Source of the DNA: Schmidtea polychroa
Lineage: Eukaryota
NCBI GenBank assembly: GCA_044892525.1
Contig: CM097885.1
Location: 24,244,001 to 24,308,000 of the forward strand
Reading direction: 5' to 3'
Length of the DNA: 64,000 nt
The position numbers and the translations under genes were made by a program. Below the pieces are notes generated by a model that saw only the letters and a list, made by a program, of their open reading frames with translations, did not search any database and was not told the origin of the DNA. Below are positions 558-64,000 of the stretch, piece after piece. Each line of letters starts with the position of its first letter. The stretch's first letter is position 1.

Positions 558-2431
558 TTATTCATTATTGAAATAATATTTCAAGAATACCAAAGCGTTC
601 AACAATGGAAACTGAAGTCTACTTCTTAATTTTGTTGAAAATGTACCAGCCACCGAGAAAACTCTCTCACTGCTAGTGGAGGTTGGTTGAATCGTATTAA
701 GAGCATTCAAAAGTTTTTCTAAGTTGTGAGTTAGTTTTCCATTGCCTTCAAGAAGTTTTAATTCTTTTTGTAAAGAGTCAAAATTATTTTTTTGAAATTT
801 TGTTGGATTTTCACTGCTCATGGAAGCTATAGATTTTTTCAATTCCATAACCAATGTAATCGGTTCGCAAATTTCATCCTCAAATCCGGACGAAGACACA
901 TGATTTTCATCTTCTGGAATTGCATACAATCGACTCATTGTATCTTTTGCATAGGCATAGATTGCTGGTTTCGAAGCATATGTAATATCATCAAAATTAT
1001 CATCTCGGGAGATTGATGAATTTTGTAGAAATTTCATCAAAGATACTACTTCTTTATTTCTTCGTTTTAAAATTTCTGTTTTTAATGACGTCAACATTTC
1101 ATTGCTCAAATCTGAATCAATATCGTTTAATTTTTTAAACATAAATTTAACAACACCTTCGCTAGATAAAAGTGTTGCTTGTTCGTTACTCAACTCTTTT
1201 ACACCTAATTCAAGTGGTTTTAAGATATTTAACATATTTTCTAGGATTACGAAATTTTGTTCATTGTAATATTCTTTTTCCGTTCCTAATAAGTCAATCA
1301 ATGATTGTTTAATACATTTTTTTAACTTTAGGAGTCGCTCAATCATAGGGACCAATGAGTTCCACCTGGTTTTGCAATCCAACAGTAAATGTAATTCTTT
1401 TTTTTCTTGTTCCATAACATATTTTTGAAGAACATTTTTTCGAACAGCAGAAAATTTAAAAAATTTTATAAGCCTCCGTGATTCAGATATAACAACATTA
1501 ATGTCAGGTCTCATAAGTATATTATTAACACCAGTATTATCAAATCCTAAATTCATATTTTCGTGTTCAATATCACTATTTTCATAATCATAATCAGAAT
1601 CGTTTTCAGACTGCTCATCAAATTTGCTATTATTTTCATCATCAGATGTCGTAACCGTTCCTGTTTTTTTATAAAAAACACCAATCACGGCCAAATGAAT
1701 GGCGTGATTGTAGCACAATTGACTGATTGCAGAAATATTTCGTCCATACTTCTGCATAAGAGCAGCACCATCATGCGTGGAGGCAACAATATCTGAAAAC
1801 TGAATACCGAATTCTAAAAGTTTATCTTTCACTATTTTTTTAGTTTTTTCAGCGTCACAAGATCCATCGATTTTTGCCAATCCTAATTTATAACAGATAC
1901 TCTTGCTATGTAGTGTAACATTCATATAACGCTTCATATTTATGTCCGTCCATTCATCGACTGTAATACTGAATTTTTGTTCATTGTTTTTTTTTGTATT
2001 TAGATTGTTTTTAAGTTCTTCTCGTTTCTGTTCGTAAAACTGAATTATAAGTTTTTTAACTGTGTTTCGACTACGAGGCATTTCGAATCCTCTTTTATGT
2101 ATAAATTCTCTAATTGCTGATGAATTAGTTATTGCGTGGATTGAAAATCCATCTTTTGCAGCACATTTTGCTAATAACTCACCTAAGCTTTCTCTCTTAA
2201 CAAACTTTAAAATTTGTTGTGAATTTACAATTTTTGAAGATTTGACACTTGTAGTTTCTTCTTGATTCGACGTTTTTTTGTTGATATAAATTTCATGTCT
2301 TTTCAAATGATTTATGAGTGGAGTTGTAGAAGATCCTTTACATTTGATATTATTACCACATTTTCTACATGTCGCCTCCTCAGAACTATGTTTTCAAAGT
2401 GAATCCAAACCTCCGATTTTTTTGAAGACAT
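558..2431 (-). CDS. hAT transposase with N-terminal BED finger; one frameshift near 2392
   Basis: ORF 558-2306 has DEWT, HDGA, CYNHAIHL, TRWNS and the C-terminal PTSTSSERVFS dimerisation motif. The upstream BED finger (MSSKKSEVWIHF..ATCRKC..HLKRH) joins by a 1-nt shift in an A-run, which is either a mutation or an assembly error. Confidence 0.9.
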
Positions 2432-7287: not shown

Positions 7288-7653
7288 ATGTCACAATCTA
7301 GCAACCACAGTGGGGAAGAGACGGATAGGCAAATGATCACGTGACTCCGGTCCCGGTATATCTGGTACCGCATCCACGATTGGAACCGAGGACTGGACCT
7401 GGAAAATTTCGGCCCAGTCATACGGAGTGGCCCCGAGCCCGATGCCCCGGCGTAGGTAAAAACCAAGCCGCAGAATAATCTGCTCCAGGAGGCCCGCGAC
7501 CGAGCGGCAATGGAAGTCGAGGCCACCCAAATTCGATTGAAGCGACTGGAGCTCCAACTCCGGGCCGCCAATGAAGGAGTCCCCCTGGAGGAGTTGGAGG
7601 ACGCAGAAGCGCCCCCACGAAAACGAGGAAGACCCAGAAAGCACCCATTGTAA
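7288..7653 (+). pseudogene. LTR-borne AT-hook/coiled-coil protein, copy with 2 in-frame stops
   Basis: Same 366-nt length as, and clear homology to, 11136-11501. Ends PPRKRGRPRKHPL. Confidence 0.8.
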
Positions 7654-11501: not shown

Positions 11502-11708
11502 TCAAGGACCAACTATTGACTTACTATAATTGTGTGTATTGTGACAAATAATCAAAATTGGTTGAGGATCATGTGTTACTCTTTTTAACAAAATATCTTT
11601 TGAATAAATTTCTTATTTAATAGCTAAAGTATCGTTATGCATGATATTGACCTTATTATATTGAACAAGGGGAATGCTGCAAGCCAGTAATCGTTGTAAT
11701 TTATCTAG

Positions 11709-12178
11709 TGATCAAACTATGCGAAAATCTACGAAAGGACAGAGAAGAAGCCCAAAAACAGGCCGAGGAGCTCCGTATACGAGTGGACAAACTCAAGGGA
11801 CGGTGCCGTGAACTAGAAAGCACCTGGTTTAGTCCTCAAGATATGAGGAAGAAGTTGACACAGGTCCTCCAATTGCAGACTCAAAACGCGCAGGATCAGA
11901 TGGAGATCCGGGCCTTGAAACCCCAACTCCGCGCGTTGGAAACCGAACGCAATGAACAAGCGGTTCACGGAGCCACCATAAGTCAAATCCGGCCGTTGTC
12001 CGTGGAGTTGGCAGCCATTTACCCTCCGGCCGCGAAAGATAAGCCCAAGAGGAAGCGGCTGGGGAGAAACATTCGTGAGAAATTAAAGAAGGCCAGACTG
12101 GCCGAATACGAAAAGCAAGTGGGCTCCTCGCAAATATCTACGACGGGACTAATCGGCCCCACCAACCGGCCAAGTTGA
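11709..12178 (+). CDS. Coiled-coil protein exon with basic NLS-like tail (KPKRKRLGRNIREKLK)
   Basis: Open frame preceded by acceptor-like TTTTATCTAG. Homolog at 12870 differs largely at third codon positions. Confidence 0.65.
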
Positions 12179-12869
12179 ACTTCCATTCCTTGATGTGTAC
12201 TTCTGTAGTGTGTTTATATATCTAGTAGTATTAAAATGATATTTCCTTTGCTGGTTGTTAAAATAATACATGTTCGGTAGCGTTAAAAAATGTCTGATAT
12301 ATTTTATGATTGTGTGAAAAGTGAGAGTTTGCACGTAAGGTTGGGAAAACAATTTTGATAAGGGACCTAAGGAAATCGGACACAAACCTTCTAACGGTAG
12401 TCCGTGAACCCGTGGAGTGCTCGACGATTATAGTGCCTCGATGCGCTCACTTTTCGCGAGCACTCAACCCTTGGTACAGGACCAACGTTGATTACTCAAC
12501 GGGTACCAAGCGGAAACACTAACGTTGTATTTTGGGTTACGCTGGCAACAGCACTAAAGAACAAAATATTTGATCATCAGTAACCCACCACTACTATTGA
12601 CTACGACTGGTGACGAAATCGTTAACTGGTTCTTATACTGATTGAATTACATTTTCTTAATTGTACTTGGTTTGGTTTATGCATGAATTTTAGTGTAATA
12701 AATTATTTCCGTGTTAACTAGCAACATTTGTATGTTGCGCTACACAGCCATGCTCGGGGATTTTAGGTCAATGCGCCGTTAACAATTTAACTATTTAATT
12801 AAATATTTATTTTCTAGTTAGACACATGAATGACAGTAACGAATTCTATTAGTATATTTTCCCTTTTAG

Positions 12870-13314
12870 TGTTTAAACTGTTCGAAAATCTGCGCAAAGA
12901 CCGGGAATAGGCTCAAAAGCAGGCCGAAGACCTCCGAGTCCGGGTCGACAAACTCAAGGGGAAGTGCCGGAAATTCGAGGGCACTTGGTTCAGCCCCGCA
13001 GATATGAAGAAAAAGACCGCACAAATTCTCCAACTACAGGCCCAAGCCACACAGGACCAGATGGAGATCCGCGCATTACAATTACAAGTGCGCGCGCTAG
13101 AAACCAAACGAAACGAGCAAACCGTACACGAAGCCGCAATGAGACAAATCCGGCCGCTGACCGTAGAACTGGCAGAGATATACCCCCGGCTGCGATAAAC
13201 AAACCCAAACGAAAGCGGTTAGGACGCAATATCCGCGAGAAACTAAAGAGAACCAGGTTGGCCGAACAGGAACGTCAAGATAAACCAACACCGACGCAAA
13301 CGTCTGCGATATGA
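12870..13314 (+). pseudogene. Disrupted homolog of the 11709-12178 coiled-coil ORF
   Basis: Same motifs (TWFSP, DQMEIRAL, KRKRLGRNIREKLK). Stop near 12908 and frameshift near 13190. Confidence 0.8.
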
Positions 13315-14328
13315 TTAACAGCTATGCAAATGATTTTTTTTTAATTGTTATTAAATTGGTATATGAGGTATTGTTTTATAATTGTTTGGTGACTGAAAAT
13401 TTGAGTATGGAGGTTTGGAAAAACAATTTCGGTAAGGGACCTGAGTAAATTGGACACATGCCTTCTAACGGTAGTCCATGGACCAACAGAGTACCCGACA
13501 ATTATAGTGCCGTCAGTGCGCTCATTTTTTGCGAGTACTCACCCACTTGATACAGTACCAACGTTGATTACTCAATGGTTATCAAGCGGTAAACAATGTT
13601 GTATTTTGGGGTTACGCTGTTAACAGCACCGAAGAACAAATGTTTGATCACCAGTAACCCACCTCATGTAAGACATTAAAATTTTTTTTCCTTTACATAG
13701 ATTCATCGATTTTCCAATGTCAAATCATCACATCAAAACGTCCACTCGAATAGAGATCCTCGACTAATCGACATGTGAATAGAAAGACACATAAACAATT
13801 ACGATATCCTGTAGCGTTGATTTGCCAAAATTAGTATTACCCAATCGAATAAACAAAGTCTTCCGAATTACCGATGTCAACCGAGATCTTTGTTTATGGT
13901 TCTCATGAGCCGAGATGTAGATATCATTTTGTCCAGCCGAATACTCCTATTAATATCAACGTAGGCAATTATAAACAATTGAAACAAGCCGATTTGTGCG
14001 ACAAATTCTAAATATCAGTCCAAAAAGTTCATTCATATACATAATCCCTAGACAAATTAAAGCAATTCCCGACTGACACCGGCTAACTGTTTACAAAATT
14101 CGACGATAAAACGGAAATTTGCATTCCCATCGTGTTTACATAGATTATGTGCAACTTTTAATAATTAAATTATCAGTACATAATTAATTATGATTTTAGA
14201 CATTAGGATTTCTTTTCATTTATTATAAAACTAGAGGTAAATGCACCTATCAAGGGAATGCTATCGACCATAGAACCTCATAACCCATCAAAGAAATACG
14301 TTCTACTCACAGTTTTCCATATTACAAC

Positions 14329-15371
14329 TGTTGAGGTCTGTAAATTAAAATTAAAAATTTAAATAAAATTTAGGATAATAATTCAAATGGAAAGTAAGCG
14401 AGGAAAAAGGCAAATAAAAGCGGGATCGTGCACAGAATCAATAGAATTGGAAAGTGTGATGGAAACAGTATTAGAAAATGCAAAAAGCAATTACGAAAGG
14501 CGAGAATCCGGAAATCCGAGAAAAATCAATAAATGGAAAAATCATCGAAATCGAATGGGAAAAACGGGACAGGTATAGATTAGCTAATGGTCAACAATTT
14601 AATGGTTAGGGATTTATCAGAAAAGGGTTAGAAAGGGTCGAAAAACATTCAAACGTATGAAAACAGAAAACGTTAATTAATTAATTAATTGGCTAATGGA
14701 AAACCCGAGCTAATGGAGAACCCGAGAGATAAAGGAAACCCGAGCTGGGTAAACAAGAAGAAAGGCAAACAAAAGGAAGAATTGGGCCCATTAGCTAGAC
14801 ACATTGATTAATGGGAAAAGAGTAAGGAGAAGATAGCGCGCGTAGGAAGACCGGTAGGGACATTAATTATCTGGATTCGTTGGACCATTATGGGTGACAG
14901 CCGAAGCAAACACGTAGGAGAAAATGTCAAACGAAAGATTGGCTCGGCAATAACCATTTGTCATCCTGATTTCGAGGAGTATATAAGCAAAGGGAAAATC
15001 AGAGAAAATCGGCAATTTGCCTCAGGTAGGGTAAGAAGAATCGAGAATAGGCGAGAGGTAAAAACGAATTTAGGGAAGTAGGGAAAAGAAGAAATAGAAT
15101 TAAGAATACGAAAAGGTGAAAAGGAATCAAACCAAACAGAAACCGAGGAAAACGTGAATCGAGAGAGAATCTAAAGGATTAAAAGGTGAATATTATTTGT
15201 TTGCAAAGCATCAACGCCGAGTGGAGAATCGTATAAAACTTTGATTGGTAATTGTAGCGTGATAATCAATTGTGAACCTGTTGTTTCAATATACGTTGGG
15301 TCGTTCATTGTTTTGATTTAAAGAACACAGGAGTCAGAGAGAACCGACTTGAAATAATCCAAAACCCAACA
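14329..15371 (+). repeat. 5' LTR
   Basis: TGTTGA...CCCAACA; direct repeat of 20907-21962. Confidence 0.95.
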
Positions 15372-15378
15372 TATATTC

Positions 15379-15396
15379 TGGTGAGCCCGACGTGAT
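15379..15396 (+). promoter_or_regulatory. Primer-binding site, tRNA-Trp type
   Basis: TGGTGAGCCCGACGTGAT just after the 5' LTR; 1 mismatch to the canonical Trp PBS TGGTGACCCCGACGTGAT. Confidence 0.85.
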
Positions 15397-15649
15397 TGAA
15401 AGTCGGAGGAAAATTATTGGAAGCTAGTGAAAAAGGAATTGTAAAAAGAATTAGTACCGACGCGATAGAGAGTCGGCTGAGAATCATTGAAAGTAGTGGA
15501 AAATTTGTGAAAATAGTGCTAATTAGATTATTAAAGGCTATTATTGGGAGATTTAAAAGAAGTTGAAAAGTAATTTTAAATTATTGTTTAACTCAATTGT
15601 TTAGCTCAAAGTGAACCGATACAACCTCAGAAGTCAGAAACAAGTCCAA

Positions 15650-18600
15650 ATGGCAAATGATAATGCTGTTATGCCTCTCAATAGAGAGATGATTGATTTC
15701 GCAAGTTGCCAGAAATTACCCGTCAATCAATATGGAGGAGACCCTGTTGAATTTGCAGATTTCATGGGAGATTATTATATGTACGCCTCAGCATACGGAT
15801 GGACACAAGCCATTATGGTTCAGAGATTCCCACTCTATCTGAAGGGTGCGGCAAGAGAAGCCTGGCAGCAAGTCGACAAACGAAATGTTGGCAATGATTG
15901 GACAAAATTGAAGGATGCAATGGCACTGAAACTGGTTGGTGGAGATATCAAAAGAATCATGCGACAGAAATTTTATAATCGAGTTCAAGGTCCAGATGAA
16001 TCGGTCAGTGAGTTTGCGTATCATCTGACCACTTTAGCAGATAAAGCATTCGAAGTCAAACCAGATCAAGCAGATATGGCCAAGCAGGTTAAAGAGCTGT
16101 TAGAAGATCAGTTTATAACCGGAGTCCACTCCGAAATTAAAAAGGCCCTATGTTATGTGGATTTTTCCAATTTCGATGAGCTCGTGAAGAAAGCCATGAA
16201 GATAGAGCTGAATTTTAAAAGTGCAAAAAGATCAGATGCTTTTGGAGTTAATGTGGAGAGACGAGAGCGATCAATTACGCCTGTGAGAGCACCATGGGAT
16301 GAAAAGAAAATAAATCAAATCAGTAGTCCAATTTTGAGACCAAATAATAGATTTCAAGCCAGTAGATCAGCCATGAACGTACAATCAAATGGACAGGTAA
16401 ATAATCCTCAATGCGAACATTGCAAATGTCTGGACACTATTCAAATCAATGTTGGTTCAAATATGGGAAAAATCCCAGCCCTAACAAGAGATTCACAGAT
16501 AACAAAAGGATCAGCAGTGATGTCGAATGCTATCGATGCGGAAAGAAAGGGCATATTAGCAGAAACTGTTTCACTAGATCAAGATCATCGTCAACTTCAC
16601 CTTCACCACAAAGGGACAAAGTGAATACAAATGGACAGATACAATTTCATTCGTGCAAGGGATACGGCCACATGGCGCGATCATGCCCAAGGAACTCAGA
16701 AAGATTCAGCAGACCTATTTTAAAGAAATCAATCAGATTCCAAGAAGATATGCCAAACACCAGTAACATGACATATGCTCAGAGAGAGGAATTTCAAGAC
16801 AAAATGGAAAAGGAATTTCGAGAAATGCGACAGAAGCTGAACAAACTAGTGGCTAAATTTGAATCAGATGAAGAAACTGAATCTCATATGATAATTGGAA
16901 CCGTGTCAGAAGGTGAGGGAAAACCTGCCATGAAAGTGCGAAAGATCGCATCAGATGAGAATCCGACTGCACTGTTAGCCCGAGGTGAAAAATGGCTTGA
17001 GAAAATGGAAACTGACAATTCCCAGTTGAAACGATGGATCGCAGAACTCAGCGTGATGACACTAACCCAAAGCGAACTAAAGAGAGCCATAAATTTATGT
17101 GCAAAGTTATTCAAAGGAAACAGAGACGATGAGATACTTAAGCAAATGCAAAAGTTTGGCAAGGCTTTACGGTCAACAAGGGATTTAGCTGATATCATAG
17201 TGGAAACGATGGGACTTGATAATGTGAAGTGCCAATTCCGCGTAAATGCATACGGACAAATCAGAGAGCTAAAGGAGCGAATACTGCGTCAATACAGTTG
17301 ATGGCAAGTGGAACTAAAATTTGAGAATCGATGTCTGAAAGACGAGGAGTACTTGGTAGATTGCGGTCTGATACCAGGCTGGAGAAATAAAGTAAATGTT
17401 GTTAATGCTGTTAATACTTTGAATTCAGACAGACATAATTGGGAAAAGATTCTAGCAGATTTACAAGATACCCTGTATGCAGGAAATGGAGATAAAATTA
17501 ATGCGAGTATCGACTTCATAATGAGCATCAAAATGGATCGAGACATGAAAGAAGGGTTGTTTGAATGCATCGTACCGTATACGAATAAACCGACAAGTTA
17601 TCAGGCAAAGTTAAGAGGTAATCCGAAAACTAGGACATGATTATGATGCGGCAGACGATAGTGCGAAGTCTTTGATAATAGCGTTAAATATTGCGGATCA
17701 AAGGATTGAATATTATCAGGAACATTGGAGTGTAAAAGCAAAGAAAATACGACAAAAAGCAGCGGAGATATTAGGTAATGACGGAATTATCGTGTTGACG
17801 TTCAAAGGACGAGAATTGGATGATGACGAATATTTGTTAAACTACGGATGTAACCCAAAAAGTATTAATAATGTGTACGCAACAAAACAAAGTGGTGAAA
17901 TGGAAAAAGATGCAGTAATAGTACCGTTTTGGCCTCTGTGTGAGGAAATGGATAATGATAATGTAGAGATTAAAACTGAAGTTGTAGATGACCCAGGAGA
18001 AATTGATCAAGAAATTAATGAATTGCAGAGATTAGAAACAATGGAAAATGAGGAAATGAGATCGGAAAATGAAGTTACAAGGGATGTTGAGGAAACGAGC
18101 ACCGATAATAGGGTACTACCGAGCATAGATGAGATGAAAAGTGAAGAGAACTTCGTTGAAACTAAAAATGACATTGCGATATGTCGGAAAAAACAAAATG
18201 ATGCGGAAACGCAATCTTTGAGTTTAGATGAATCAAGCGAAACTGAGCGAATATTAAAAAGTTTAGTTACGGAATTGTACTTGTTAGATGAAACTGAAAC
18301 CGAAGATGATACTTCGGAAGGGGAGAAAAGAGTTGTAAAAAGATTGGCAACGGAATTAAAGAGGAGATTACCGTCGATAATTAAAAGAAATTATGAAGAA
18401 AAGGAATTTTGTTAGGAAGCAGTAATTGAGAACCTAACACGAACCGAGTTGGATCGAGATGTAATATTGACAGTGCTAGCCTATATAATATTGGAGATTG
18501 GTATTTATGGTTGTCTGGAAAGTGACAATTCAAAATCATTGATAAAGAAAGCTACTGAAATGACGAATAAATATTTGACTAAGTGGATCGCAAACAATGG

Positions 18601-20497
18601 CGGATGGGAAAAGTTAATACAAAAGGCTGAGAGCCCAAAAACAGAGACAGTGAGGAAAAAGGGAAAACTCGCATTTCCATGGTTGATGATTTCTATTATT
18701 ATGTTATTGGGAATAATAAACACGACGAATTCATTGGTGGCATACGACTGCTCCCAAACCGAAATGGGAAGAGTATATTCGTTGGTAAACGTAGCAGAGT
18801 GTTCGGATGCATATCCAGTAAAATTTAAAGTGACAAATCCAGTAAAATATTATGTATACCAAGAATCGGGATTTAGACGAGCAAAGGTGAGAGAGTGTAC
18901 AGTGAAACGAACTACTTTCGTATTTTATTGTGGAAAATGGAGCCACTCATCGATGGTGAAAATGCAATCGATACCTAGACCGATAGAAATAATTCCAGAG
19001 AATTGTTTGGCAGCCTTTCAAACAGGACAGTTGAAAATCAATGCAGATATCAAACTACAAGCAAAGCTTAACCACAAAATCCGTGAGACTGTAACCGTGC
19101 GAGGGATAATAAAGTCGAATGGTGACTGCCAAGGAGAGCCATACAAAGTAGACGATGCTATAATTGACAAAGCCGTGGTTGTGGAAGAGTACATGTCAGA
19201 ATTAAGAGAATTTGATGGATCATTTGATGATGATACTGGTAAACTACAAACACATCCATTCTGCAAAATGAAACAATCTAGCTGTAAGACAGGAGAATCA
19301 ATCTTGGTGTACGATGTCGATACCAAAAAGTGCAATTTAGTGCAATTGAAGTCAATGAGTTTTAAAGAAATAACGGGAGAACAGATCAGGGAAAAGCCTG
19401 AGAAAATAAGAATGGATCCAGCAACGAGTACAACAACAAGAATTACACCTCTACGGACGAAAGATACTCCAACAGTGTTAATGTCAACCTCGGAGGAAGA
19501 TGGGATGCGATTCCTGAGAAAAGAAACTAAAACAAAGTGTGGACAAAGTGTCTATGAGACAAATTATAAAGGTATATATGTATCTCAGAAGATGATTTCA
19601 GAGGCCCAAACAAACATACATGCCGGAGATATCAAGTTGACAAATTACTTTAATAACAAAATAGATTATTTATTTCACTTTGGTCAAAATACTGTTGAAA
19701 ATGTGTACCGAGAAGTTATTATAAATGATTGCAATCTCAATAAAGAAATACTCCGAAATCGGATGGCAATGGCTATAACCAATCCTAATTTGGTAGCACC
19801 AATGTTAATTACAGAAAATGGGGTGTTTGCCAGAATTTTCGGTGAAGCACTATATAGCTATAAATGTAAAGCGGTACCAGTTAAACTGACAAAGTATGAC
19901 CAATGCACCAACGAGTTACCAGTAAATTTAAATGGAAAGTTGCGATTTATGGAGCCTGTAACACGAATCTTACTGGAAGAGGACGTGAAACCGAAAGTAT
20001 TACAGTGTAATAGATTGTTGGCACCACTATACAGACTAACACCAGAATCTTGGATTGCATTACCAGATCATCGAGAAGTAAAGACACCGGAAAATTTAGA
20101 ATTGACAGAATTACAATATCTGGTAAATTTTACGTCGTTAGAAAAATTGTCGCAAAGTGGAATTTACTCGAACGAAGACATTGAGGAAGCTCGCAGACAC
20201 TTGTTATTTCCATCAAAGAAGGAAAGAGTAATAATGGAAATGCTAGATACAATTCTCCCAAGCGGAAGTGGAAAGGTAAATTACGAGTATTTGTTAACTC
20301 CAGATCATTACAAGAAAGCGACGTATAATACAATGAAAAAGATCTGGGGAAAGTTTATGTTCATTGGACAAGCGTGTGCCGGATTGATTGGAATTTATGT
20401 AATATGCGTTGTAATCAAAGTGATAATATCGCAGGTCCTGTCAACACACAGGTCTGACATGATGATAATGATGGCGTTTTCCCTTATCTCCTGCTAA
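15650..20497 (+). pseudogene. Polyprotein Gag-ZnK x3-UBL x2-acidic-Bcl-2-like-TM/signal-chuvirus-like glycoprotein (2 frameshifts, 2 in-frame stops)
   Basis: ORFs 15611, 16411, 17308, 17672 and 18449 join via a frameshift at ~16425 (restores CEHCKMSGHYSNQC), TGA 17299, a frameshift at ~17615 and TAG 18413. Capsid motifs FPLYLKGAAREAW and QGPDESVSEF; knuckle CYRCGKKGHISRNC. Confidence 0.8.
18734..20450 (+). CDS. Env-like glycoprotein region, chuvirus G-like (class III fusogen-like)
   Basis: Signal followed by LVAYDCS..YSLVNVAEC..VRECTVKRTTFVFYCGKWSHSS. GEALYSYKCKAVPV..CTNELPV..FMEPVTRIL pattern. TM at ~20353-20440. Confidence 0.8.
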
Positions 20498-20894
20498 ACT
20501 TTCTTGGTAATATCCAAATTATCAACACAAATTGAATCAAGTCCATTTAAACTAGTCGATTAATTTTCTTAATAAAGCGAAAATGGCATCAAATTAAATT
20601 AAAATATTTTAGTTTTATATCGTAAAAATTATTATAGATTTTGGAGTATGAAATTTATTTATTGTATGATAATAATGGTAATAATGGTAATAGAAATGAA
20701 TAATATTAATAATAGTAACAATAATAATATTAATAATAATAATACTCGTTAAATAATTAAAAGATTTCTTTCTAAAAATATTTAATAATTTAAGAGTATA
20801 AAGTACAATCTAATAATATTTAAATGCATGTAAAATTACGTCCAAGGACATAATCACAGAAAAACATAAATTTCGAGGACGAAAAAATTTTTTT

Positions 20895-20906
20895 AAGGGG
20901 GAGATA
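20895..20906 (+). promoter_or_regulatory. Polypurine tract
   Basis: AAGGGGGAGATA immediately before the 3' LTR. Confidence 0.85.
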
Positions 20907-21962
20907 TGTTGATTAAATTAAAATTAAAAATTTAAATAAAATTTAGGATAATAATTCAAATGGAAAGTAAGCGAGGAAAAAAGGCAAATAAAAGCGGGAT
21001 CGTGCACAGAATCAATAGTAAAGGAAAGTGTGATGGAAACAGTATTAGAAAATGCAAAAAGCAATTACGAAAGGCGAGAATCCGGAAATCCGAGAAAAAT
21101 CAATAAATGGAAAAATCATCGAAATCGAATGGGAAAAACGGGACAGGTATAGATTAGCTAATGGTCAACAAGATGATGGTTAGGGATTTATCAGAAAAGG
21201 GTTAGAAAGGGTCGAAAAACATTCAAACGTATGAAAACAGAAAACGCTAATTAATTAATTAATTGGCTAATGGAAAACCCGAGCTAATGGGAAACCCGAG
21301 CTAATGGAGAACCCGAGAGATAAAGGAAACCCGAGCTGGGTAAACAAGAAGAAAGGCAAACAAAAGGAAGAATTGGGCCCATTAGCTAGACACATTGATT
21401 AATGGGAAAAGAGTAAGGAGAAGATAGCGCGCGTAGGAAGACCGGTAGGGACATTAATTATCTGGATTCATTGGACCATTATGGGTGACAGCCGAAGCAA
21501 ACACGTAGGAAAAAATGTCAAACGAAAGATTGGCTCGGCAATAACCATTTGTCATCCTGATTTCGAGGAGTATATAAGCAAAGGGAAAATCAGAGAAAAT
21601 CGGCAATTTGCCTCAGGTAGGGTAAGAAGAATCGAGAATAGGCGAGAGGTAAAAACGAATTTAGGGAAGTAGGGAAAAGAAGAAATAGAATTAAGAATAC
21701 GAAAAGGTGAAAAGGAATCAAACCAAACAGAAACGGAGGAAAACGTGAATCAAGAGAGAATCTAAAGGATTAAAAAATGAATATTATTTGTTTGCAAAGC
21801 ATCAACGCCGAGCGGAGAATCGTATAAAACTTTGATTGGTAATTGTAGCGTGATAATCAATTGTGAACCTGTTGTTTCAATATACGTTGGGTCGTTCATT
21901 GTTTTGATTTAAAGAACACAGGAGTCAGAGAGAACCGACTTGAAATAATCCAAAACCCAACA
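20907..21962 (+). repeat. 3' LTR
   Basis: Near-identical to the 5' LTR, with one extra GCTAATGG.AAACCCGA unit. Confidence 0.95.
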
Positions 21963-22221
21963 CAACTACTATAATTTGGATTTATAATTTAAAAATATTT
22001 TAACTAAATTTTTCGAAAATAATCTTGATCAAAGCTCACCCTTAATAATTAGTATGCGATGCGAAATTACTCATTTGTGACGATGAAGATGATCAGACTA
22101 TAGCACTTAATTGCGTCGAGAGGAAGTGGATAGAGCGAACCACCTGAAGGACATAGAATTTTTTTTGTTAAAAATTAGTGGCAAAGTTTCTTATGATCTG
22201 CAATTATCACATTTAATTTAG

Positions 22222-24886: not shown

Positions 24887-25860
24887 ATGAGTGGGAAAAG
24901 AAGTCGTATTCATAAAATATTAAAATGCAAGTGATTAAAGAATATAAACCAGATATGGTTTTGATGCTTTAAGTAAAAAAATATGGGTTGACAACATCAA
25001 CAGTTTGCGACTGGGTAAAAGATCAAGTGGGAATTTTTAAGACATTGTCAAATCCAGAAATGTCTACACGAGTCGCAAGGCGATTGCCAAGTGGTGGTCG
25101 AAATAAAGAATTTGGCAAACTAGAAAATGACCTGATCAAATGCATCAATGATAGAAATGAGAAAGGTATCCGCGTCAAAAATAAATATATTAAAAAAATG
25201 GCGCTTCATATAAAACAAAATTATAATTTGGAAAAATATAAAAAATTTAAAGCATCAAGTGACTGGCTTGATAAATTTAGAACACGCTGAAAATTAGTTT
25301 CGAGACGACAAACAACATTTCGAAGCATACCGGAGGATTCCGATAAAGTTGCTAGCGAATTTATATACAGAATGCAAAAAATTATATATGATATAAAAGT
25401 TGAACTGCAAAACATTTTAAACATTGATCAAATACCGAAATATTTGGAACCTGAACCAAAATGTCCATAACCAATAAAAGAATACGAAATGTGGCAAAGC
25501 AGGTAGCTCCTATTACTGTTACCTTTACGATCACGGTCAATGGAAAAGTTTTAAAACCACATTTGCTATTTTCCAAATTAAACAAAATCCTAAAGTTCAG
25601 TGGTTGTTTTGTTGATGTAAATAACAGTGGAATGTGGAGCGGCGACATATTAAATAATTATGTCAAATGTTATTATGAATAGACCGAAAACTAATTTGCT
25701 TTGTGAGCCAGTTCTATTGATAATGGATTCTTATGGACCACATGATTCTTATGAAAGTACCGAATTATAGTATCGTTTTCGAAATGGGTATTTGATTGGA
25801 CAAACAGTATTGCTGCTGAAGCTATAGTCAAAGCTGGTATCAGAACATCTCCGCCCTGGA
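24887..25860 (+). pseudogene. pogo/Tigger-like transposase relic
   Basis: HTH (STVCDW), CENP-B-like FKASSDWLDKFRTR*KLVSRRQTT, then ILNIDQ and KVLKPHLLF fragments. Confidence 0.8.
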
Positions 25861-49161: not shown

Positions 49162-50058
49162 TTAATAAATACGTAAAATTAGTGAATCATCCCACAACTG
49201 GCCATTTACAGGAATATTTTCACTATCTAGGATTTCATTTCCCCCTGATACAGTGCTACTTATAACACTATTTCCTGCGTGAGGTACCGGCAAACCAGGA
49301 ACACTTTCTTGTACCGCTACTATTCCATTAGAGTTCATTATAGGATAACTTGAAAAATTTCCCGTTATTCCATTTGTGAAATGTGACTCTTCATTTACCA
49401 ATGGTAATTGGCTATTAGCATGAAAAAAATCATCCCACAACTGCCCATTTACAGGAATATTTTCACTATCTAGGATTTCATTTCCCCCTGATACAGTGCT
49501 ACTTATAACACTATTTCCTGCGTGAGGTACCGGCAAACCAGGAACACTTTCTTGTACCGCTACTATTCCATTAGAGTTCATTATAGGATAACTTGAAAAA
49601 TTTCCCGTTATTCCATTTGTGAAATGTGACTCTTCATTTACCAATGGTAATTGGCTATTAGCATGAAAAAAATCATCCCACAACTGCCCATTTACAGGAA
49701 TATTTTCACTATCTAGGATTTCATTTCCCCCTGATACAGTGCTACTTATAACACTATTTCCTGCGTGAGGTACCGGCAAACCAGGAACACTTTCTTGTAC
49801 CGCTACTATTCCATTAGAGTTCATTATAGGATAACTTGAAAAATTTCCCGTTATTCCATTTGTGAAATGTGACTCTTCATTTACCAATGGTAATTGGCTA
49901 TTAGCATGAAAAACATTTCCTTCTAGAAACACCTCGGTACCAAGAACATTTTCTTGTATCGCTACTATTCCATTAGAGTTCTCGCTATCTGTTATAGATG
50001 ACACTTCATTTATCAACAGATTTGAACTTTGTGAAAAATCTGAATTTTTGATAGTCAT
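49162..50058 (-). CDS. 298-aa ORF of unknown function with three near-identical 81-aa (243-bp) repeats
   Basis: ATG start and open frame through the repeats (~49185-49912); N/S-rich, acidic. Confidence 0.5.
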   Translation of the reverse strand: MTIKNSDFSQSSNLLINEVSSITDSENSNGIVAIQENVLGTEVFLEGNVFHANSQLPLVNEESHFTNGITGNFSSYPIMNSNGIVAVQESVPGLPVPHAGNSVISSTVSGGNEILDSENIPVNGQLWDDFFHANSQLPLVNEESHFTNGITGNFSSYPIMNSNGIVAVQESVPGLPVPHAGNSVISSTVSGGNEILDSENIPVNGQLWDDFFHANSQLPLVNEESHFTNGITGNFSSYPIMNSNGIVAVQESVPGLPVPHAGNSVISSTVSGGNEILDSENIPVNGQLWDDSLILRIY

Positions 50059-50491
50059 TATTTTATTTATAAATCTAAGATTTACCGTATAAATCTACGA
50101 AATCCATCTCCCCGTAATTAATGAAAATTTTAAAACCCAATTTTATTTTTCTAAAACATTTAATATTAGTATTATGATATAATTATAATAATTTACAAGT
50201 AGTCGATTGACTAATAGTAAACAAAATTAAATAAGTTGTAATAAAACAATACTCAATAGCTTATTATAACTTTAAATACTAAAATGTGTATTTTAATAGA
50301 TTATTTGTCTTTTTCAGAAAAAGCTCTAAAATTACCTAATTTTTTAATTATTAAACAAAAATATTAATATTTATTAAATTTCTTAATCAATTATAAGCAT
50401 TTCTTAGAATTTTGACTCTTACAATTTTATCAATTATTGTGAATTCTTCAAAAGATAAATCAATTAACTTGAAAATTTATATCCTATAGAT

Positions 50492-50811: not shown

Positions 50812-50821
50812 CTATAGATAG

Positions 50822-53800
50822 TGGTGGGTTACTGATGATCAAATATTTTGCTCTTTAGTGCTGTTACCAGCGTAACCCAAGATACAACATTGTTTACCGC
50901 TTGATACCCGTTGAACGATCAACGTTGGTACTGTAGCAAGACGGTGAGTACTCGCAAAAAGTGAGCGCACTACTTGCACTGTAATTGTCGAGCACTCTAA
51001 TGGGTTCACGGACTATCGTTAGAAGATGTATGTCCGATTTACGCAGGTCCCTTATTATAATCACTTCCTCAACTATGCCTATACAAACTTTCTATCCTCA
51101 AACGATCATAAGTCATCAGGAATCATACATTACTCTATTAAAGCCTGTTCATACAACACCACATCTAAAATGTTTGAATATAAATTAAGTGAAACATAAC
51201 CATAGTTTATTAAACAAACCTCAAGAAATTTTTGAGACTAATGAATTTAATTAGAAAATAAAAAAAAACTTAATAAACTGAAACAATAGAAATGATAAAG
51301 ATAACATGCATTCCCCACGATAACCTGATCAAAAGAAAATTTCAATTTAGTTAAGTTAACTTACAACCTATTTTAACATAATCCAAATATCACTTGTAAA
51401 TTATGGGTAATATTAATATATGAAGTTTAGATTCATTACAATCATAAAAGTTCTTATGAAGAGTAAATAATTCTAATCTACTTAAATTTTCAATTTATAA
51501 TATTCCTCAAACGACCAAACTAACTCCGTAATATACTTGAATTCATTATGTTAAAATACTAGAACAAGTTGGTAACTAATAAATTAAATAAAGTAATGGA
51601 ATTTTGATTTCATTATTACTTTTTGTTTTGTTAAAGTTATTTAACATTATTTAAATTTTCGTTGTTTTATTATAGTAATTATAATTAATGTTAAATAACA
51701 AATTTTGAATAAATATATGATTTTAGTTAACTTTGATATAATAATGTAAATAAATTAAAATTTTAAGCATTTATATCCTAAAATTTCATAATATTTCAGG
51801 AATATCAGCATTTGGCCGAATCTCCGAACAATTACTATTGATCAATAATGTATTATGACATCTCGAATGAGCAAAGATCATTTGACAACACCAATGAGAA
51901 AATTGTAATTAACTTCCTTAATTTAATTAATTAACTTCATTAATTTCCTTAGCAATCGAGTTGATAATAATTCAGTGAGGTACGAAGGTTTGATTGCCCC
52001 AAGGTCAGTTCCACCAACTAATCTTCCTGGCGGAATTATCTGACAATGACTACTCAAAAAGAGATGCAAGGAATATAGTTGGCCATCCAACAATATTACG
52101 TCAAATCAATATGTAAGTCATTGAACCAAAAGGAACGAAGCAGAAAATAAGGAATTATCCAGAAGTCTTCCAACTCCAGGAAATGTATTTCATTGGGATG
52201 GTCCATCAACCGTGCTCGAAGGACCTTGGTATAACTATGATTCAAAGAAACAATTATATGAATAAAGTTGATGATCGAAATCAATAAACTTAGTCTTTGT
52301 TTTTCTTTTTTTTTTGATCTAGTTAAAAATAAATTTAGTCTCTTTTGATTTAGTTAAAAATAAATCCAATAATTCTAATAAATCAATAAATGATTCTACT
52401 AAATTACTTCAGTAAACTACTCTAACCTCGCTCCATCACCTTAAGGGGGTTGTGACCATCACATAACAGGGGTCTTGAGGGGGAAGGTTATCGTATTTTT
52501 ATAAGGTTGCTTTATAAATCTGTATGTACATACACACACACACATATATATACACACACATATATATATACATATACATATACACACATACCTATATATG
52601 GATATAATTTAAATTAATAATATTGATGTCGTTTTCCGGGGGGGGGGGTGTTACTAAAAATAGATTTTAGTGATTTTCCGTAATTTTATTGGAAGATAGG
52701 GCCATTGAAACTAAATTTAGAGATAGGGGAATCCGAAAATCGATAATTTTGTTTAAAATTTTATTTTTATGAAATAATAATTACTTTAATAATATAATCA
52801 GTTTAGTGGGGTTACTGGGGAAAATAAAATCAATGATATCAATAAAATGTAATAGTAGTACTAATGATAGTAGCAGTAATGTTAAAATAACAATAATGAT
52901 AAACGGCGAATGTACCTTGATATCTTTATGAAATTACCACGGGTATATAGCTTGGGGGTCATTTAGGAATTTTAAGAGTTATCATTTTAAAATCAAATAT
53001 AAGATGAATATATACATATATATATAAGAGTAGTCTATCTTAGTGTAAATTTAGATAAATATATAATTTGAGGGGGGTCATTTAGGAAATTTTACCACTT
53101 ATATTTTTTATTATAATGTAAGTTAAATATATATTAAAATAAGCCAATTTAGTATGTATAAGTTTGAGGGGGGTACTCGTGAAAAAGGTAAGTTATACTT
53201 TTATAAGTTTCAAATATACATATATAAGTTAGATTATGAATCTGGACATTTGTTTCGACCATTACGTAACTTGGGGGGGGGGGTATTTATAAAATATTTA
53301 CAACTTATTATAGATTATATTTTTATCGCTAACGTAGTTTATATTTTATACTTTTATGACCAAATTAAGATTATAATTTATAGTCTTTCAGCTAATATAA
53401 GTTTATAATTTATATTTTTATGAAGTTAAATTTATAGTTTATATTTCTAAAGCTAATATAATTTTATAATTTATACTTTTAAGTTTATAATTTATATTTT
53501 ATGAAGTTAAGTTAAATTTATAGTTTATATTTTAAAGCTAATATAATTTTATAATTTATACTTTTAAGTTTATAATTTATATTTTATGAAGTTAAGTTAA
53601 ATTTATAGTTTATATTTTAAAGCTAATATAATTTTATAATTTATATTTTTATGAAGTTAAATTTATAGTTTATATTTTAGAGCCCATATAATTTTATAAT
53701 TTATACTTTTAAGTTTATAATTTATATTTTATGAAGTTAAGTTAAATTTATAGTTTATATTTTAAAGCTAATATAATTTTATAATTTATACTTTTAAGTT

Positions 53801-58048: not shown

Positions 58049-61000
58049 TTATACCATTGTTGCCAGGGGACCTGAATGCAATGTGCGCATTCCCCCATAT
58101 CTTTCATCCGTTAGCCGGTATATGTCAAATTCGTTTACCCAATCGTCTAGGGTTTGTATTCTGAGTAATTTTTGCGTCCATAGTCTGCTTGACCTTGGAT
58201 CTTCAATCGCTTCGTACTCTTCTGGATTCGGGTTTTCTGTTGGAATACCATATTCGGAATTCTCCACTTGTGGCCATTTTTTTCTGCCTTTAGGTTTTTG
58301 TTTACATATTTTGGAGGTTCTTATCCATTGGATTATTATTGATGTTATCACTGCACTCATTATTGCGCTAGCGATCCACATCATTTTAACGGTTATCAGT
58401 GTCTTGTTGTTGAATTTTCCTGTCGTCATCATCATTTTAGTTTCTGTTGTAGTGGCCTCCTGTGTTTTATTTTTCTTGAGCATCTGGTATAACTGTTTCG
58501 TTTCTTCTGCCGTTAGATGTTCGTTTCCTTTTGGCTTTTCCACTTCTTTTGGTTTTCTGGTTGCCAATGGTATGTTTTTCAACCGTGGTCGTTGTCTGGT
58601 TATTGCTTGGCATGAACTTAAATCGCTTCCGTTTTTAAGAACGCATATGTGGTATCGTCCCTTTCTTTCTCCTATTGTCATTTTAACTTCTGCACCTTTG
58701 TCAAGTAGTGTTTCTATGCAGTCGACTATTCCTGTCCTGTTTAGTACACATACTCTTACTATTGGTTCTTCACCTTGGTTTCTGACCGTGATTACTTCTT
58801 CTCTTTTCTTGTTGAATTCGACATTTACTAGTACTTCTCGTCTCTCATCTTTGATCCATATTACTGTTGTGTTTTTCTTGGTTTGGTGCTGTCCTCTTAT
58901 CATTCCCGTACGGGATTGTTTCTGGGGTTTCTTAATTGCCGGTTTGATCCTTGGTTGATATCGTTTACTAGCCATACTTTTTGGCCTGCTTTTTATTTGC
59001 GCGGTTTTAACTGCTTTACATACCACTATTGCCTGGGTACCTGCGCATACCACCATGTTGGTGTTTGGTTTTACGTTTGTCCAAAAAAATTCGCGATCTC
59101 GTTTCATGTCCACCGTTATACATATGTCTTCGTCATCTCTTCCATTGTAGCTTTAATTGCGACATGTACTCCGGTTTCGTTAGCTCTTTCCAATTCTTTT
59201 TCTTCTGATGTTATGTCTTCGCAAATGTTGTAGTCTCCGCATAATTCAGGTTCTCCATTTTGACTATTGAAAATCCTCCCTTTTGTTATCGTTCTAAAAT
59301 CACAACTTACTCCGGTTCCTTCCATCAATTGGATGCATATCCCGACCGCGTTTCCGTCGTTGCCGCTGACTTTTATCATGAATAGTTCGCCTTCTTTCAG
59401 ATTTCCTCTCGTAATTCGCGTATTTTTCGTTTCTGTTAGGCAAATTGACGTTAGTATTATTAGGATAATTTGTAGTAGGAGTGACTGGTTTAGATTCTTC
59501 CGCATTACTATGTTATGCAGTGGGGACTTTCGTTTGTCGTTCTCTGTTTCATTATGTAGGTTGTCATCACTTTGGTCTGAGTTGTCCTCAGTATCCTTCA
59601 AGTCTTCGTCGTCATCTTCTGACTCCTTGTCTTCTTTATTATCTCGTTCGCCTGAATTCCCATTTATGTTGTTCCTTTCATGGTTCCCGTCGTCTTCCTC
59701 ATTTTTGTCGTTATGGTCTTTGTCATTTTTTCCACTCCGGCCTTTTCCAAAAATGTCGTCTTCGACATGTGATGTTTTGATCATTTCTTCGTGTTTATTT
59801 AAATGACTATTCTTCAGTGATTCTCTTACTATTGTCACTTTTCTATTGGATGGCCATGGTAATTCTTGTTCACATCTGATTCTCTCGTATTCACCATATT
59901 TTGATATCAACTCCGTTGTTCGTTTATATTCAAATCCCATAATCTCAGTACCCCGTACGTCTTTGACAAACTGTTTCATTAGCTGCGGCCATCTTTCCCT
60001 AAATCTGTTAATATATTTCTTCGTTTGATCGATTGCTTGTTTTACTAAGATTATTTGATTTTCCTTCATAATCTTTCGTTCAATCTTTTCTATTTCTGGT
60101 TCCACTTCATTGTTGAATATCTGTTGGATTTTTCTCAGTATTTCCGTTACTGATTCGTTGTCTCTGTTTTTCTTTAAGATTAAGATATTAACTTCGTTTG
60201 GCCATATCATCACATCTACTAAATGTATGCTCATTTTAACTTTATAACCATTGTCGTATAGCTGTTTATTTTTATGACTTGTTCCCATCTTTTGTTGTAC
60301 CCAATTATACAGTTTATCGGTATTTGTTACTTTTAATTCAATAATCTGTATCTGAGTTTCAGGGTGTTGAATACTTACTTGGTATTGATCTGGATCAACT
60401 TCTTTCAATTTTCCTTTATATTTCGTCACCAAATCTTTCCATGTTGCCGTTAATATATCTCCTTCCCACTGGTATGCTTGAGTTATCAGTTTTATACATT
60501 TTCTGTATGTTGGTTCGTTGATATAGCTCTCATTTCGTTCTCTTTCCGATACCGTGTCGGAAATTTCCTCAAATATTTCCTCATCGTCATTTTCTATCAG
60601 TGATTTCATATCGTCGCTCTCACCCTCTTCGTTATTTTGAGGTGTTCCTTGTTCATTATTTTCATCACTTGATTGAGATAATGCACTTCTCAGACTACTC
60701 ATCGTACTTTTCTCGTCTTCCTGGTCCGTCTGATCCTTCTGTATTTGTCTCAGCATGTTTATATTGGCTCTGTTACTTGGTTCTTTCTTTTCGAACCACT
60801 CATTTTTCCTGAACCAGTTGTCTTTTACTTTTTCTTTTACTTGCTCATCCGTTAAATTTGGTTCTTCTCTTCTAATTCTATCTTCAATTTTTTGTAGTAA
60901 TACCCTCTGAATTCGATTCTTTGTAACAATCTCGTTGCTTTTTGGTTCGTGCCCTGTTTCATCACTTCTTCGTCTCTTTTCTTTTTCCTCTTTGGTGAAC

Positions 61001-62685
61001 TCTTGTATTATTTTTATTTTATCCTCGCTACTCAGTTCTGTCAATTGCTCCGTCAATTGATGTGACCCATTTTCTTTTATCGCTTTCGTCTCGTTGATTA
61101 CGGTTATATCGCTCCCTTCCTTGTTAACACACTGCTCCGCAGTGTGCGGTTCCCCTTTGTTCATTGATCTCATCATATTTATTCTTCCGGTGTTGGTTTC
61201 TCGCTTTTTCCATCTTTTTTGAATTTCTCTGGCTTTTTCGTTTAGTGGTCTCTGCCCTTCGATTCGTTGCTGGTCTTGTTGTTCTCTTGTTGGTCGTTTC
61301 CGGATATCCTCTGGTATCCGTTGGATCATCTTTTTCAACTGTTCAATTTTCTGCATGATGTTGATTTGTATATTTTGACTTGGATCGTTTGCTCTTGGTT
61401 GATTATGTTTTGTCTTCATCGCGCATTCTCTCGCCACATGTCCAAGTTGGTTGCAACTGTAGCAGGTTCTAGTCCTTCCTCCTCTCATCGACATCATTGG
61501 TCCTCGGCATATATTTTCTGTGTGACCCCTTTTACCGCAATTTTGGCACATCCTTGTCTTATAACACTCGTTGCTCCAATGTCCTAGTCGTTGACATATG
61601 TTACACTTCCGATTATTGTTCTCGTTGTTCCTGAAATTATTAGTATAAAATTGAATATTACCTCTGTTATCTGGATTTGTCATTTTTGGCGCCTTGAACA
61701 ACTGTTGCGATTCTGAGATAAATTGATTCATTCCTAGATTTCCATTGTTGGTTTGATTAATTTCGGTTGTCGTTGTTGGTGTTGTAGCTATTGGTACTGC
61801 TGCCATTGCTGCTACTTGTACTGGAGTCAAGTAGTTTTCACATTTATTAGCGATTTTTAATGCTTCCTCGAGCGTGTCTGGTGCTCGGCACCCCACTGTT
61901 GCTCGTATGTCCTTTCTTTTCATACCCTCTACGAATACGGCTATTATCTTGTCTTCCGGAACTGTTTGATTTGAATCGAATGCTTCTTTTGCCAGTCGTC
62001 TTAATTCACATGCATATAGAGCGTTTGACTCATTGTATTTCTGCTTTCGATGCAGAAAATCCAACATTTTGCGATTTACTTCCCTTTTGCTACCGAATGT
62101 TTTTATTAAAAAATTCTTTATTGATTTCCATGTTTTTAGTTTTGTTGCATCACACTTTGCCTCTAAATATACATCTTGTGCACTTCCTCTTAAATATAAT
62201 GGTATTCGCTCTCGTACGACTATGTCTGGCCAGTGACATATTGTAATATATACCTCGAATTCTTTTATAAACGTTTCTAGTTCATTAATATTCCCATCGA
62301 ATGGTTCTCCTCGAAATCTTTCTCTAAGTTCTCCAACATTGACATTAACATGGTTTATCTCTGGTGTGTATGTCAACTCTGACCCATTCGGGTTGTTCAC
62401 TTGGTTTCCGTCTAACATTATATCTCGACACGAACTTGTCATGCCTGAACTACTATCTTCCTTGTCTGTTGGTTTGATATCAGTTACCGGATATAATTCG
62501 TTTCTTTTAATATCGTCGCTGTTTTCACCTTCGTTGGTTAAGCTGTCTGATTCAAATAATGTTTTCACTGGCGCTGGTTTCTTATTGATTCTTCTGTTTC
62601 TCTTGGCTCTTTGTCTCTCTGCGTTTCCTAATAAACTAGAGCCTCCTTTACTCTGCAATCTCGTTCGATTGGCTTTTTTATCCAT
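58049..62685 (-). CDS. Gag polyprotein (capsid, 3 CCHC knuckles, UBL-like, acidic, signal, ectodomain, TM); frameshift near 59150
   Basis: IPLYLRGSAQDVY and RKQKYNESNALYACEL; knuckles CNICQRLGHWSNEC, CQNCGKRGHTENIC, CYSCNQLGHVAREC. Hydrophobic segments at ~59431-59480 and ~58325-58385. Confidence 0.8.
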
Positions 62686-63544
62686 CTTTCTCGCTTTAAT
62701 AATCTCTTTTGAATTTCACTGTGTTTCGTTGGCCAACGCTTTAATTTTCCTCTTGGTATTTAATTTGACTTTGTTTACCTTTCTTCTATCCTCGTTTGAT
62801 TCTCTTGATTCCTTATTTGTTTTCTTTTGAATTTTTGATTTCTCTTTATTTCTCTTGAATTCTTGGCTTGTATTGACTTCCTTCTGACTTATTGATTGAC
62901 TTATTCTAAAATAATTAACACTCCTAGTACATATCATAATATTTTATTCATTTTATCCTACCCTTCATTTATTTCCCTATTTTCTTTATTTTATACTACT
63001 CTTTACTCATTATTTCTCTCGCTGTTCCTTTTCTAATTCATGGTACGCTTTTACTTTTTGCTACTCACCCCCCTTTGAATTTAAGTCCATTTTTAATTAT
63101 CTATAACTCGTATCAATTATCTATATCGTCGTATCAATTATCTATCGTATAATCACAACATCAATTATATAATTCAAAAATATATATCATTAGTCATATA
63201 CATATAAAACTCATCAGTAACTTAATTAATATCTCCTCATTCGCTTTTCCCCATTCAAAAATTTGGTTTCATTTTCTCTTGCGCCGGCGCTCTATCATAA
63301 TTTTCCTTTAATCATTACCTCTTTGTCGCACTTAATCTATGTCAATTTAATCGATTTCATCTTAATCGTTTATCTCTTTTATTTCGTTCATAGTTAATCA
63401 TCGACGCTTCGGTTCGCGCGACCTCTACGTCTACATTTATTTACCATCGGCTCCCTGGCTGGTTTAATCACCTCTCTTATTTCATTTAAATCATTTATTT
63501 TCATTCAATTACCATCGGCTCTCTGGCCGGTTTAATCAACTCAT

Positions 63545-64000
63545 TTTAATCTCATGAAGTCTTTTACGACTCCTAGACGCCTGGGCTTTAACACCATTAC
63601 GCCATATAATTCACTATCAACCATCAACGCTTCGGTTTATTCGACCTCCGCGTCGGCATCGGCTTCCGGCCGGTTTAATTATACTTTTAATCTCCGAAGT
63701 CTTTTACGACTCCTAGACGCCTGGGTATTTACACCATTACGCCATATAATTCACTATCAACCATCAACGCTTCGGTTTATTCGACCTCCGCGTCGGCATC
63801 GGCTTCCGGCCGGTTTAATTATACTTTTAATCTTTGAAGTCTTTTACGACTCCTAGACGCCTGGGCTTTAACACCATTACGCCATATAATTCACTATCAA
63901 CCATCAACGCTTCGGTTTATTCGACCTCCGCGTCGGCATCGGCTTCCGGCCGGTTTAATTATACTTTTAATCTTTGAAGTCTTTTACGACTCCTAGACGC
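63545..64000. repeat. 140-bp tandem repeat (at least 3 copies, runs off the window)
   Basis: GAAGTCTTTTACGACTCC at 63556, 63696, 63836 and 63976. Confidence 0.95.

Follow-up and report, generated by a model that had tools for sequence, protein, structure and literature searches.

A probable dead, internally deleted copy of the planarian Ty3/Gypsy family Smed_errantivirus_2, with an open but clipped chuvirus-like env downstream of a Bcl-2-fold domain

Anakin is reportedly a BEL/Pao element that carries a chuvirus G in mosquitoes, and its description is said to be that of Dezordi et al. in 2020. For arthropods, the available portions of PMC10084718 give no clear case of such a capture by a Gypsy element, which may be why a capture of this kind looked new when the present locus was interpreted from its letters alone (hereafter the sequence-only reading). 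In the available text of Chary & Hayashi (eLife 2026, PMC13524379), the chuvirus/gB-type env is described in Gypsy elements across animals and an ancient origin is argued for it; the gB-type env is placed in GAG-ENV-POL order in Nematoda, Bryozoa and Platyhelminthes, and the chuvirus-like glycoprotein known from BEL/Pao elements of mosquitoes is also found beside a gypsy POL, among 114 arthropod elements. The families of that study are classed by GyDB profiles, and its supplement lists six from Schmidtea mediterranea, including Smed_errantivirus_2, a Ty3/Gypsy family of 215 copies with GAG-ENV-POL order and an env of the ENV_HSV type. The other close system is Burro/GYPSM1, a group of giant planarian Gypsy elements (Arkhipova & Yushenova 2019, PMC6431247, citing Jurka 2007 and Grohme et al. 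2018), for which the text available describes a single ORF composed of Gag, a Ubi2/SUMO-like domain, a BCL2-like domain, Env and PR-RT-RH-IN. The Burro env lies in frame between BCL2 and protease, is described there as homologous to gypsy Env, and has matches to mononegavirus fusion proteins.

The window examined here, by which we mean the whole 64,000-nucleotide stretch of Schmidtea polychroa DNA that was analysed, contains an LTR element of 7,634 bp at 14329-21962 with a CAAC target duplication (Table 1). The two LTRs align with 1,024 matches, 14 mismatches and 4 gaps (K2P 0.0136), and this divergence of 1.4% shows that the insertion of this copy is recent. The primer-binding site, which we take to resemble tRNA-Trp, is followed by a gag in which Pfam recognizes Retrotrans_gag (PF03732, E 1.5e-9) and zf-CCHC (PF00098, E 7e-9). 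The gag is interrupted within its first knuckle by a frameshift near 16420 across which relatives align, and it aligns to the gag of P0011, P0012, P0019, P0026 and P0027. Pfam scanning found no family regarded as Pao-type in the ORFs of the window or in the polyprotein relatives. The sequence-only reading had suggested a Ty3/Gypsy element with a 4-bp duplication, in agreement with the CAAC duplication and the Gypsy-type gag found here; the element is assigned to Ty3/Gypsy from its gag, the Pfam families of its relatives and the classification in the available text of Chary & Hayashi (PMC13524379).

Table 1. Features of the LTR element, in positions of the window
Feature	Position	Strand	Remark
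Target-site duplication, left	14325..14328	+	CAAC
5' LTR	14329..15371	+	1,043 bp, TGTTG...CAACA ends
Primer-binding site	15379..15396	+	starts TGG, 7 bases past the 5' LTR
gag	15650..16700	+	capsid domain, three CCHC-type knuckles
Ubiquitin-like unit 1 (probable)	17230..17400	+	interrupted by stop 17299
Ubiquitin/SUMO-like unit 2 (probable)	17660..17860	+	after frameshift near 17612
Bcl-2-fold domain	18218..18631	+	in frame with env, stop at 18413 inside; read with X at the stop
Hydrophobic helix	18668..18724	+	position of both a predicted Bcl-2 tail anchor and the predicted env signal sequence
gB-type (class III) env ectodomain, chuvirus-like	18734..20371	+	
Env membrane helix and homology endpoint (20451), pol absent	20372..20451	+	
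AT-rich stretch with AAT-type microsatellite, in place of pol	20452..20894	+	
Polypurine tract	20895..20904	+	
3' LTR	20907..21962	+	1,056 bp
Target-site duplication, right	21963..21966	+	CAAC, 4 bp

We put at about 0.9 the probability that this element is a dead copy, with an internal deletion, of the high-copy GAG-ENV-POL Ty3/Gypsy family Smed_errantivirus_2, and that its open env is a chance survivor. Over 18833-19585 the env is identical at 245 of 251 residues, counted by eye, to the one 251-residue Smed_errantivirus_2 fragment compared; the nearest other family in the table of PMC13524379 is 64% identical to that fragment, and the six planarian families tabulated there are 31-64% identical in env. 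The likeness extends, as far as the table describes the family, to the HSV/gB type of the env, to the GAG-ENV-POL order and to the arithmetic of size: the 14.8-kb span listed for Smed_errantivirus_2, less its 3-kb extensions, leaves an ORF of about 8.8 kb compared with 4.8 kb here, so that about 4 kb is missing, which fits the roughly 5.3-kb continuation of an 8,620-base contig described below. In contrast to the listed copy, the one in the window is without pol, has four frame breaks and would fail the paper's intactness filter, whereas its LTRs, primer-binding site and target duplication are present and the corresponding entries of the listed copy are blank ('none'). The proposal of a possible unreported, independent capture therefore does not stand, since the available text of PMC13524379 already has both the family and the pairing of Gypsy with a chuvirus-like env in print; the pairing is known down to the family, and in this respect the locus offers nothing new.

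By its modelled fold, the env is a class III, gB-type fusogen. All four cysteine-patterned motifs pointed out by the sequence-only reading occur in one frame at the location it gave (AYDC at 18740, CGKWSHSS at 18929, CTNELPV at 19904 and FMEPVTRIL at 19946), its transmembrane segment corresponds to a hydrophobic helix (20372-20428), and another such helix, at 18668-18724, lies just upstream of the start it had chosen, 18734. The frame 18416-20497 is stop-free, and the env itself counts 587 codons without a stop. The chuvirus-like identity proposed for the glycoprotein is upheld by a match to the Pfam Monjiviricetes fusion family at E 1e-89 and by an AlphaFold2 monomer model of 18734-20449 (63-row alignment, mean pLDDT 88.2), whose structural matches include herpesvirus gB in the PDB, with 5ys6 as the best of these (E 1.6e-14, TM 0.41), and chuvirus-like G in BFVD, headed by that of Tacheng Tick Virus 4 (E 1.9e-39, TM 0.68, 22% identity). 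Searched against the PDB as a single sequence the env returned chance centrin matches only, and as a profile it returned gB at E 0.012; the alignment has 22 near-invariant positions, mostly Cys and Gly, all of them listed against the window sequence. This fold and cysteine pattern are shared with Chuviridae/Jingchuvirales G at about 20% identity and with herpesvirus gB at 10-12%. Both are stand-alone genes, whereas the env here is a domain of one polyprotein and not a separate gene, and the view of it as a separate intact gene gives way to that of a polyprotein domain that is truncated in this copy.

The sequence-only reading missed three features of the element: its lack of pol, a Bcl-2-like domain and the probable ubiquitin-like units. 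The region directly upstream of the env matches positions 4-100 of the 100 in the Pfam Bcl-2 profile PF00452 at E 0.0039 (18.1 bits, cut-off 31.4), and six of seven aligned members match the same profile at E<=1 (best 2.5e-5), the matches shown all lying below the curated cut-off. The profile of the aligned domain retrieves Bcl-xL from the PDB at E 1.4e-6 and recovers P0005, which had been left out of it, at E 5.6e-6. The domain model has eight helices (pLDDT 73.8), and a C-terminal membrane helix goes with the fold; Foldseek places BAK first at E 1.6e-3, with no match at 0.001 or better, and in a wide structural search Hydra Bcl-2-4 reaches Z 13.7 (133 aligned, rmsd 3.1), with a Bcl-2 fold in all of the top 36 rows and the first unrelated row at Z 5.3. 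Helical bundles can reach such Z values by arrangement alone, but here the list is uniform and independent evidence from sequence points the same way, and on these grounds we accept the Bcl-2 fold. A Bcl-2-like region, picked by eye, is present in six of the 16 relatives that extend 100 residues or more upstream of env; the module appears dispensable since the other ten are without it, and its distribution on the env tree takes three changes, which fits, and does not prove, one gain and two losses. Programmed read-through of the stop at 18413 was considered and rejected, as the stop lies inside the Bcl-2 fold and P0011, P0012, P0023 and P0026 continue there in one frame.

Two further units, upstream of this domain, are probably ubiquitin-like, and we treat them as a lead only. 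Unit 1 was recovered by an iterated profile from unit 2 at E 1.1e-11; Atlas matches of unit 2 to Rad60-SLD/ubiquitin clusters score 0.87-0.88, which is under 0.9, its relatives give weak UBX and ubiquitin matches, and ubiquitin-like units were matched in 6/14 polyproteins. A C-terminal di-glycine is absent from both units, so that release by host deubiquitinases is without support here.

By description, Burro has the same order of Ubl-like, BCL2-like and Env domains after Gag (the Ubl label being a lead), and the scale is different: a Burro element is over 30 kb long and its ORF spans 4,873 aa, whereas this copy measures 7.6 kb and the full-length family an estimated 11.6 kb or so, and none of the Burro cargo named in the available text of PMC6431247 (MATH, BIR, Smc, ankyrin, dUTPase-like) was seen in the window. 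Among the relatives, P0011, P0016, P0017, P0018 and P0024 have at least two aspartic-protease matches after env, and in P0011 these are followed by ankyrin repeats, as in the Burro description. The main text of Chary & Hayashi, figures apart, has no mention of Bcl or apoptosis, and the seven text supplements of PMC13524379 have none of bcl, apoptosis, ubiquitin, Burro or accessory. For Bcl-2 together with env in retrotransposons, Arkhipova & Yushenova 2019 was the only source that looked relevant among the papers listed, subscription papers and Repbase aside. The cassette of Ubl-like, Bcl-2 and env domains thus appears to be unreported for this compact family, while known in Burro.

The most serious alternative concerns what this domain does. 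Rather than blocking apoptosis, it might anchor the Gag half to the membrane or act as an inhibitor of innate signalling in the manner of A46/A52/N1, and the NWGR motif of BH1 is indeed absent in all seven aligned copies, which keep a BH2-like end with its GG alone invariant; poxviral A46, B14, N1 and A52 are also among the structural matches, at the lower Z of 5.9-7.4. Against this, cellular Bcl-2 proteins that bind BH3 head the structural matches (Z 12-13.7), and six relatives have, by eye, a basic residue at about the position of the BH1 arginine. We judge that such an anchoring or signalling role falls not far below an even chance. As for the viral Bcl-2 mimics (herpesvirus BHRF1/KsBcl-2, poxvirus, ASFV A179L), they have in common with the modelled domain the helical fold (Z 7-12.5) and a selfish carrier, and differ from it in that the domain here is fused in a polyprotein, with its predicted tail helix at the position of the env signal.

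Four lesions interrupt the coding region, namely frameshifts near 16420 and 17612 and stops at 17299 and 18413, and searches with 19 relatives as queries found no match to protease, RT or integrase anywhere in the window. From another run comes an 8,620-base contig whose alignment to 17128-20451 shows 100 other letters and 29 gaps; past 20451 it continues with about 5.3 kb of other sequence that is absent from the window. Homology to full-length copies stops at this same position, just past the membrane helix, and where all 11 relatives printed have a conserved segment after the helix, this copy has 15 unrelated residues instead. From the continuation of the contig, the replaced segment and the lack of pol matches we conclude that pol was lost at 20451 and that the env itself was clipped. 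This loss could also have preceded insertion, the pol-less form being a non-autonomous subfamily copied in trans by full-length helpers; both LTRs, the primer-binding site, the polypurine tract and a perfect target duplication are all present in the pol-less copy, and in one run the summed depth over 20452-20894 is about 6,400 compared with about 260-470 in the left flank, so that other places may share the stretch. That depth, however, is about 30-fold below the remaining interior and is not a copy number, three of the four runs have no coverage of this AT-rich, microsatellite-bearing stretch, and among the contigs listed none bridges 20451/20452. A helper-dependent subfamily is therefore unlikely, and we prefer the reading of an individual Smed_errantivirus_2 copy that suffered its deletion in place. 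As 20452-20894 is covered in a single run of the four, where its depth lies above that of the flank and below that of the family, the stretch may occur in a minority of copies.

To place the env among its relatives, homologues were collected in a near-length search (7 matches), a search of longer proteins (3 matches) and a full search (1,516 matches at E<=0.001), and 22 of the 150 listed among the 1,516 were scanned with Pfam. The best matches among those listed are long polyproteins in which env follows gag and precedes protease. Fourteen long proteins belong to the env clade: a protease lies downstream in 12 of them (in one weakly), RT accompanied by an RNase H of PF17917/PF17919 was found in six, and a Pao-type family in none. 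Env identity is 28-44% to retroelement relatives versus about 20% to viral G. Two trees were built, a FastTree phylogeny of 127 env regions (the window and 126 of 156 stored matches, short or over-long spans having been dropped) and an IQ-TREE phylogeny of 25 chosen rows; both are rooted by choice of outgroup and are without named Anakin or chuvirus sequences. The window env falls within one 17-row polyprotein clade with support of 100 in FastTree and 100/100 in IQ-TREE, two members of which, P0005 and P0022, are fragments whose polyprotein label is unproven. The clade is deep, with end branches of up to 1.3 changes per site, and it stands apart from P0078, a BEL/Pao-linked G fused to DUF5641; in these trees without named sequences, the planarian env clade lies outside all sampled stand-alone G. 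The separation from BEL/Pao-linked G anticipated by the sequence-only reading is recovered, as the window env is outside the P0078 lineage in both trees. Anakin shares with this element the Pfam family of its fusion glycoprotein within an LTR element and differs in superfamily, in host and in that the env here lies within the polyprotein, before pol; the phylogenetic comparison with it runs through P0078, one BEL/Pao-linked G outside the clade, in trees without named Anakin.

That a planarian Gypsy element captured a chuvirus G recently and independently would agree with chuvirus-like G as the best viral structural match and with the position of the clade apart from P0078. Such an event is nonetheless highly improbable given the lower identity to viral G than to retroelement relatives, the depth of the polyprotein clade, the six planarian families (31-64% in env) already listed and the ancient origin argued in the available text of PMC13524379.

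Four database proteins with env sequence of this clade deserve separate mention. P0013 is a complete env-pol polyprotein filed at NCBI under a Flavobacteriaceae metagenome-assembled genome and is probably animal DNA binned into a bacterial genome; P0007, P0009 and P0030 are env pieces joined to ordinary host genes, and these fusions are most likely gene-model artefacts over insertions.

The open frame of the env had been set against the damage upstream. The env is stop-free and the upstream parts are damaged, as noted earlier, but the env is not undamaged, since homology ends at 20451 and its C-terminus is truncated. With four breaks in the 3,084 upstream bases and none in the 1,718 bases of env, the chance of an unbroken env is 0.17 (binomial) or 0.11 (Poisson), so that selection, which the contrast had implied, is not told apart from chance; the stop-free env is within chance expectation, and its open frame is a chance survivor. 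The six differences in 251 residues from the Smed_errantivirus_2 fragment compare with a roughly estimated neutral expectation of about four on one branch at the age of the LTRs, which indicates about neutral drift, and in this copy there is no sign of selection on env. Metagenome contigs scanned with the env ORF yielded no locus, and no promoter, splice or start evidence was found for the env of this copy; 11 contigs of RNA run X19 lie on the element, contigs that cannot show transcription and could be DNA. Co-option of this env by the host as a syncytin-like fusogen kept open by selection, for which the 587 stop-free codons, the 22 near-invariant positions listed and the confident model might be cited, is the least probable account, given an open frame expected by chance, near-neutral differences, a C-terminal truncation, a young insertion and a family with hundreds of copies.

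Other elements share the window. Beside the insertion, 11651-13660 comprises a pair of diverged units in tandem, spaced by 1,161 and 73-81% alike, whose coiled-coil-like ORFs have no Pfam match, and related pieces lie at 50814-51111 on the reverse strand and at 7335-7635. A second, different gag element is represented by a 1,199-codon ORF at 59116-62715 on the reverse strand, with Retrotrans_gag, zf-CCHC and a long unexplained C-terminal part; its gag is 28% identical to the first over 114 aa, no pol match was found in the window, a 367-codon ORF without a Pfam match follows it (58049-59152, reverse strand), and 140-bp tandem repeats occupy 63555-64000 upstream. Further features are a stop-free 611-codon hAT transposase ORF with a BED finger and a hAT dimerisation domain (558-2393, reverse strand), a 310-codon ORF made up of three near-identical 243-bp (81-aa) repeats with no credible Pfam match (49162-50094, reverse strand) and a fragment of a Tc5/pogo-type transposase DNA-binding domain (24973-25290, forward strand, E 1.5e-10).

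The modular order suggests how a full-length element might work. Its polyprotein would run from Gag through the ubiquitin-like unit or units, the Bcl-2-fold domain, a helix, the gB-type Env and a second helix to protease, RT, RNase H and integrase, the domain order being that shown in relatives. Such a polyprotein would cross the ER membrane twice, the first helix threading Env into the ER and, as we infer, serving both as tail anchor of the Bcl-2 domain and as Env signal. Signal peptidase would cut after this helix, the Bcl-2 domain would stay anchored by its tail on the cytosolic side of the membrane, Env would fold in the lumen, the second helix would bring Pol back to the cytosol, and the element's protease would release the parts. 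Env trimers might then let enveloped particles fuse with neighbouring cells and spread from cell to cell, while the Bcl-2 module may keep the producing cell alive, which we hold to be about as likely as an anchoring or signalling role. The copy in the window, without pol and with four frame breaks, can perform none of these steps. More broadly, we tentatively propose, as an idea rather likelier to fail than to hold, that in a gB-type errantivirus sub-clade, which would take in compact high-copy planarian families as well as giant Burro, a captured Bcl-2 is functional and its tail anchor is also the Env signal peptide, so that an apoptosis blocker is planted in the producer's ER, with one gain and at least two losses.

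What the locus yields is thus a by-product of the original question, in that a planarian errantivirus family of 215 copies has a compact, Burro-like cassette of ubiquitin-like, Bcl-2 and env domains in which the Bcl-2 fold is structurally supported. If the Bcl-2 domain works, this compact family would be a far easier object of study than the 30-kb Burro, and it would present a retrotransposon-borne regulator of apoptosis in an animal whose tissue turnover needs cell death.
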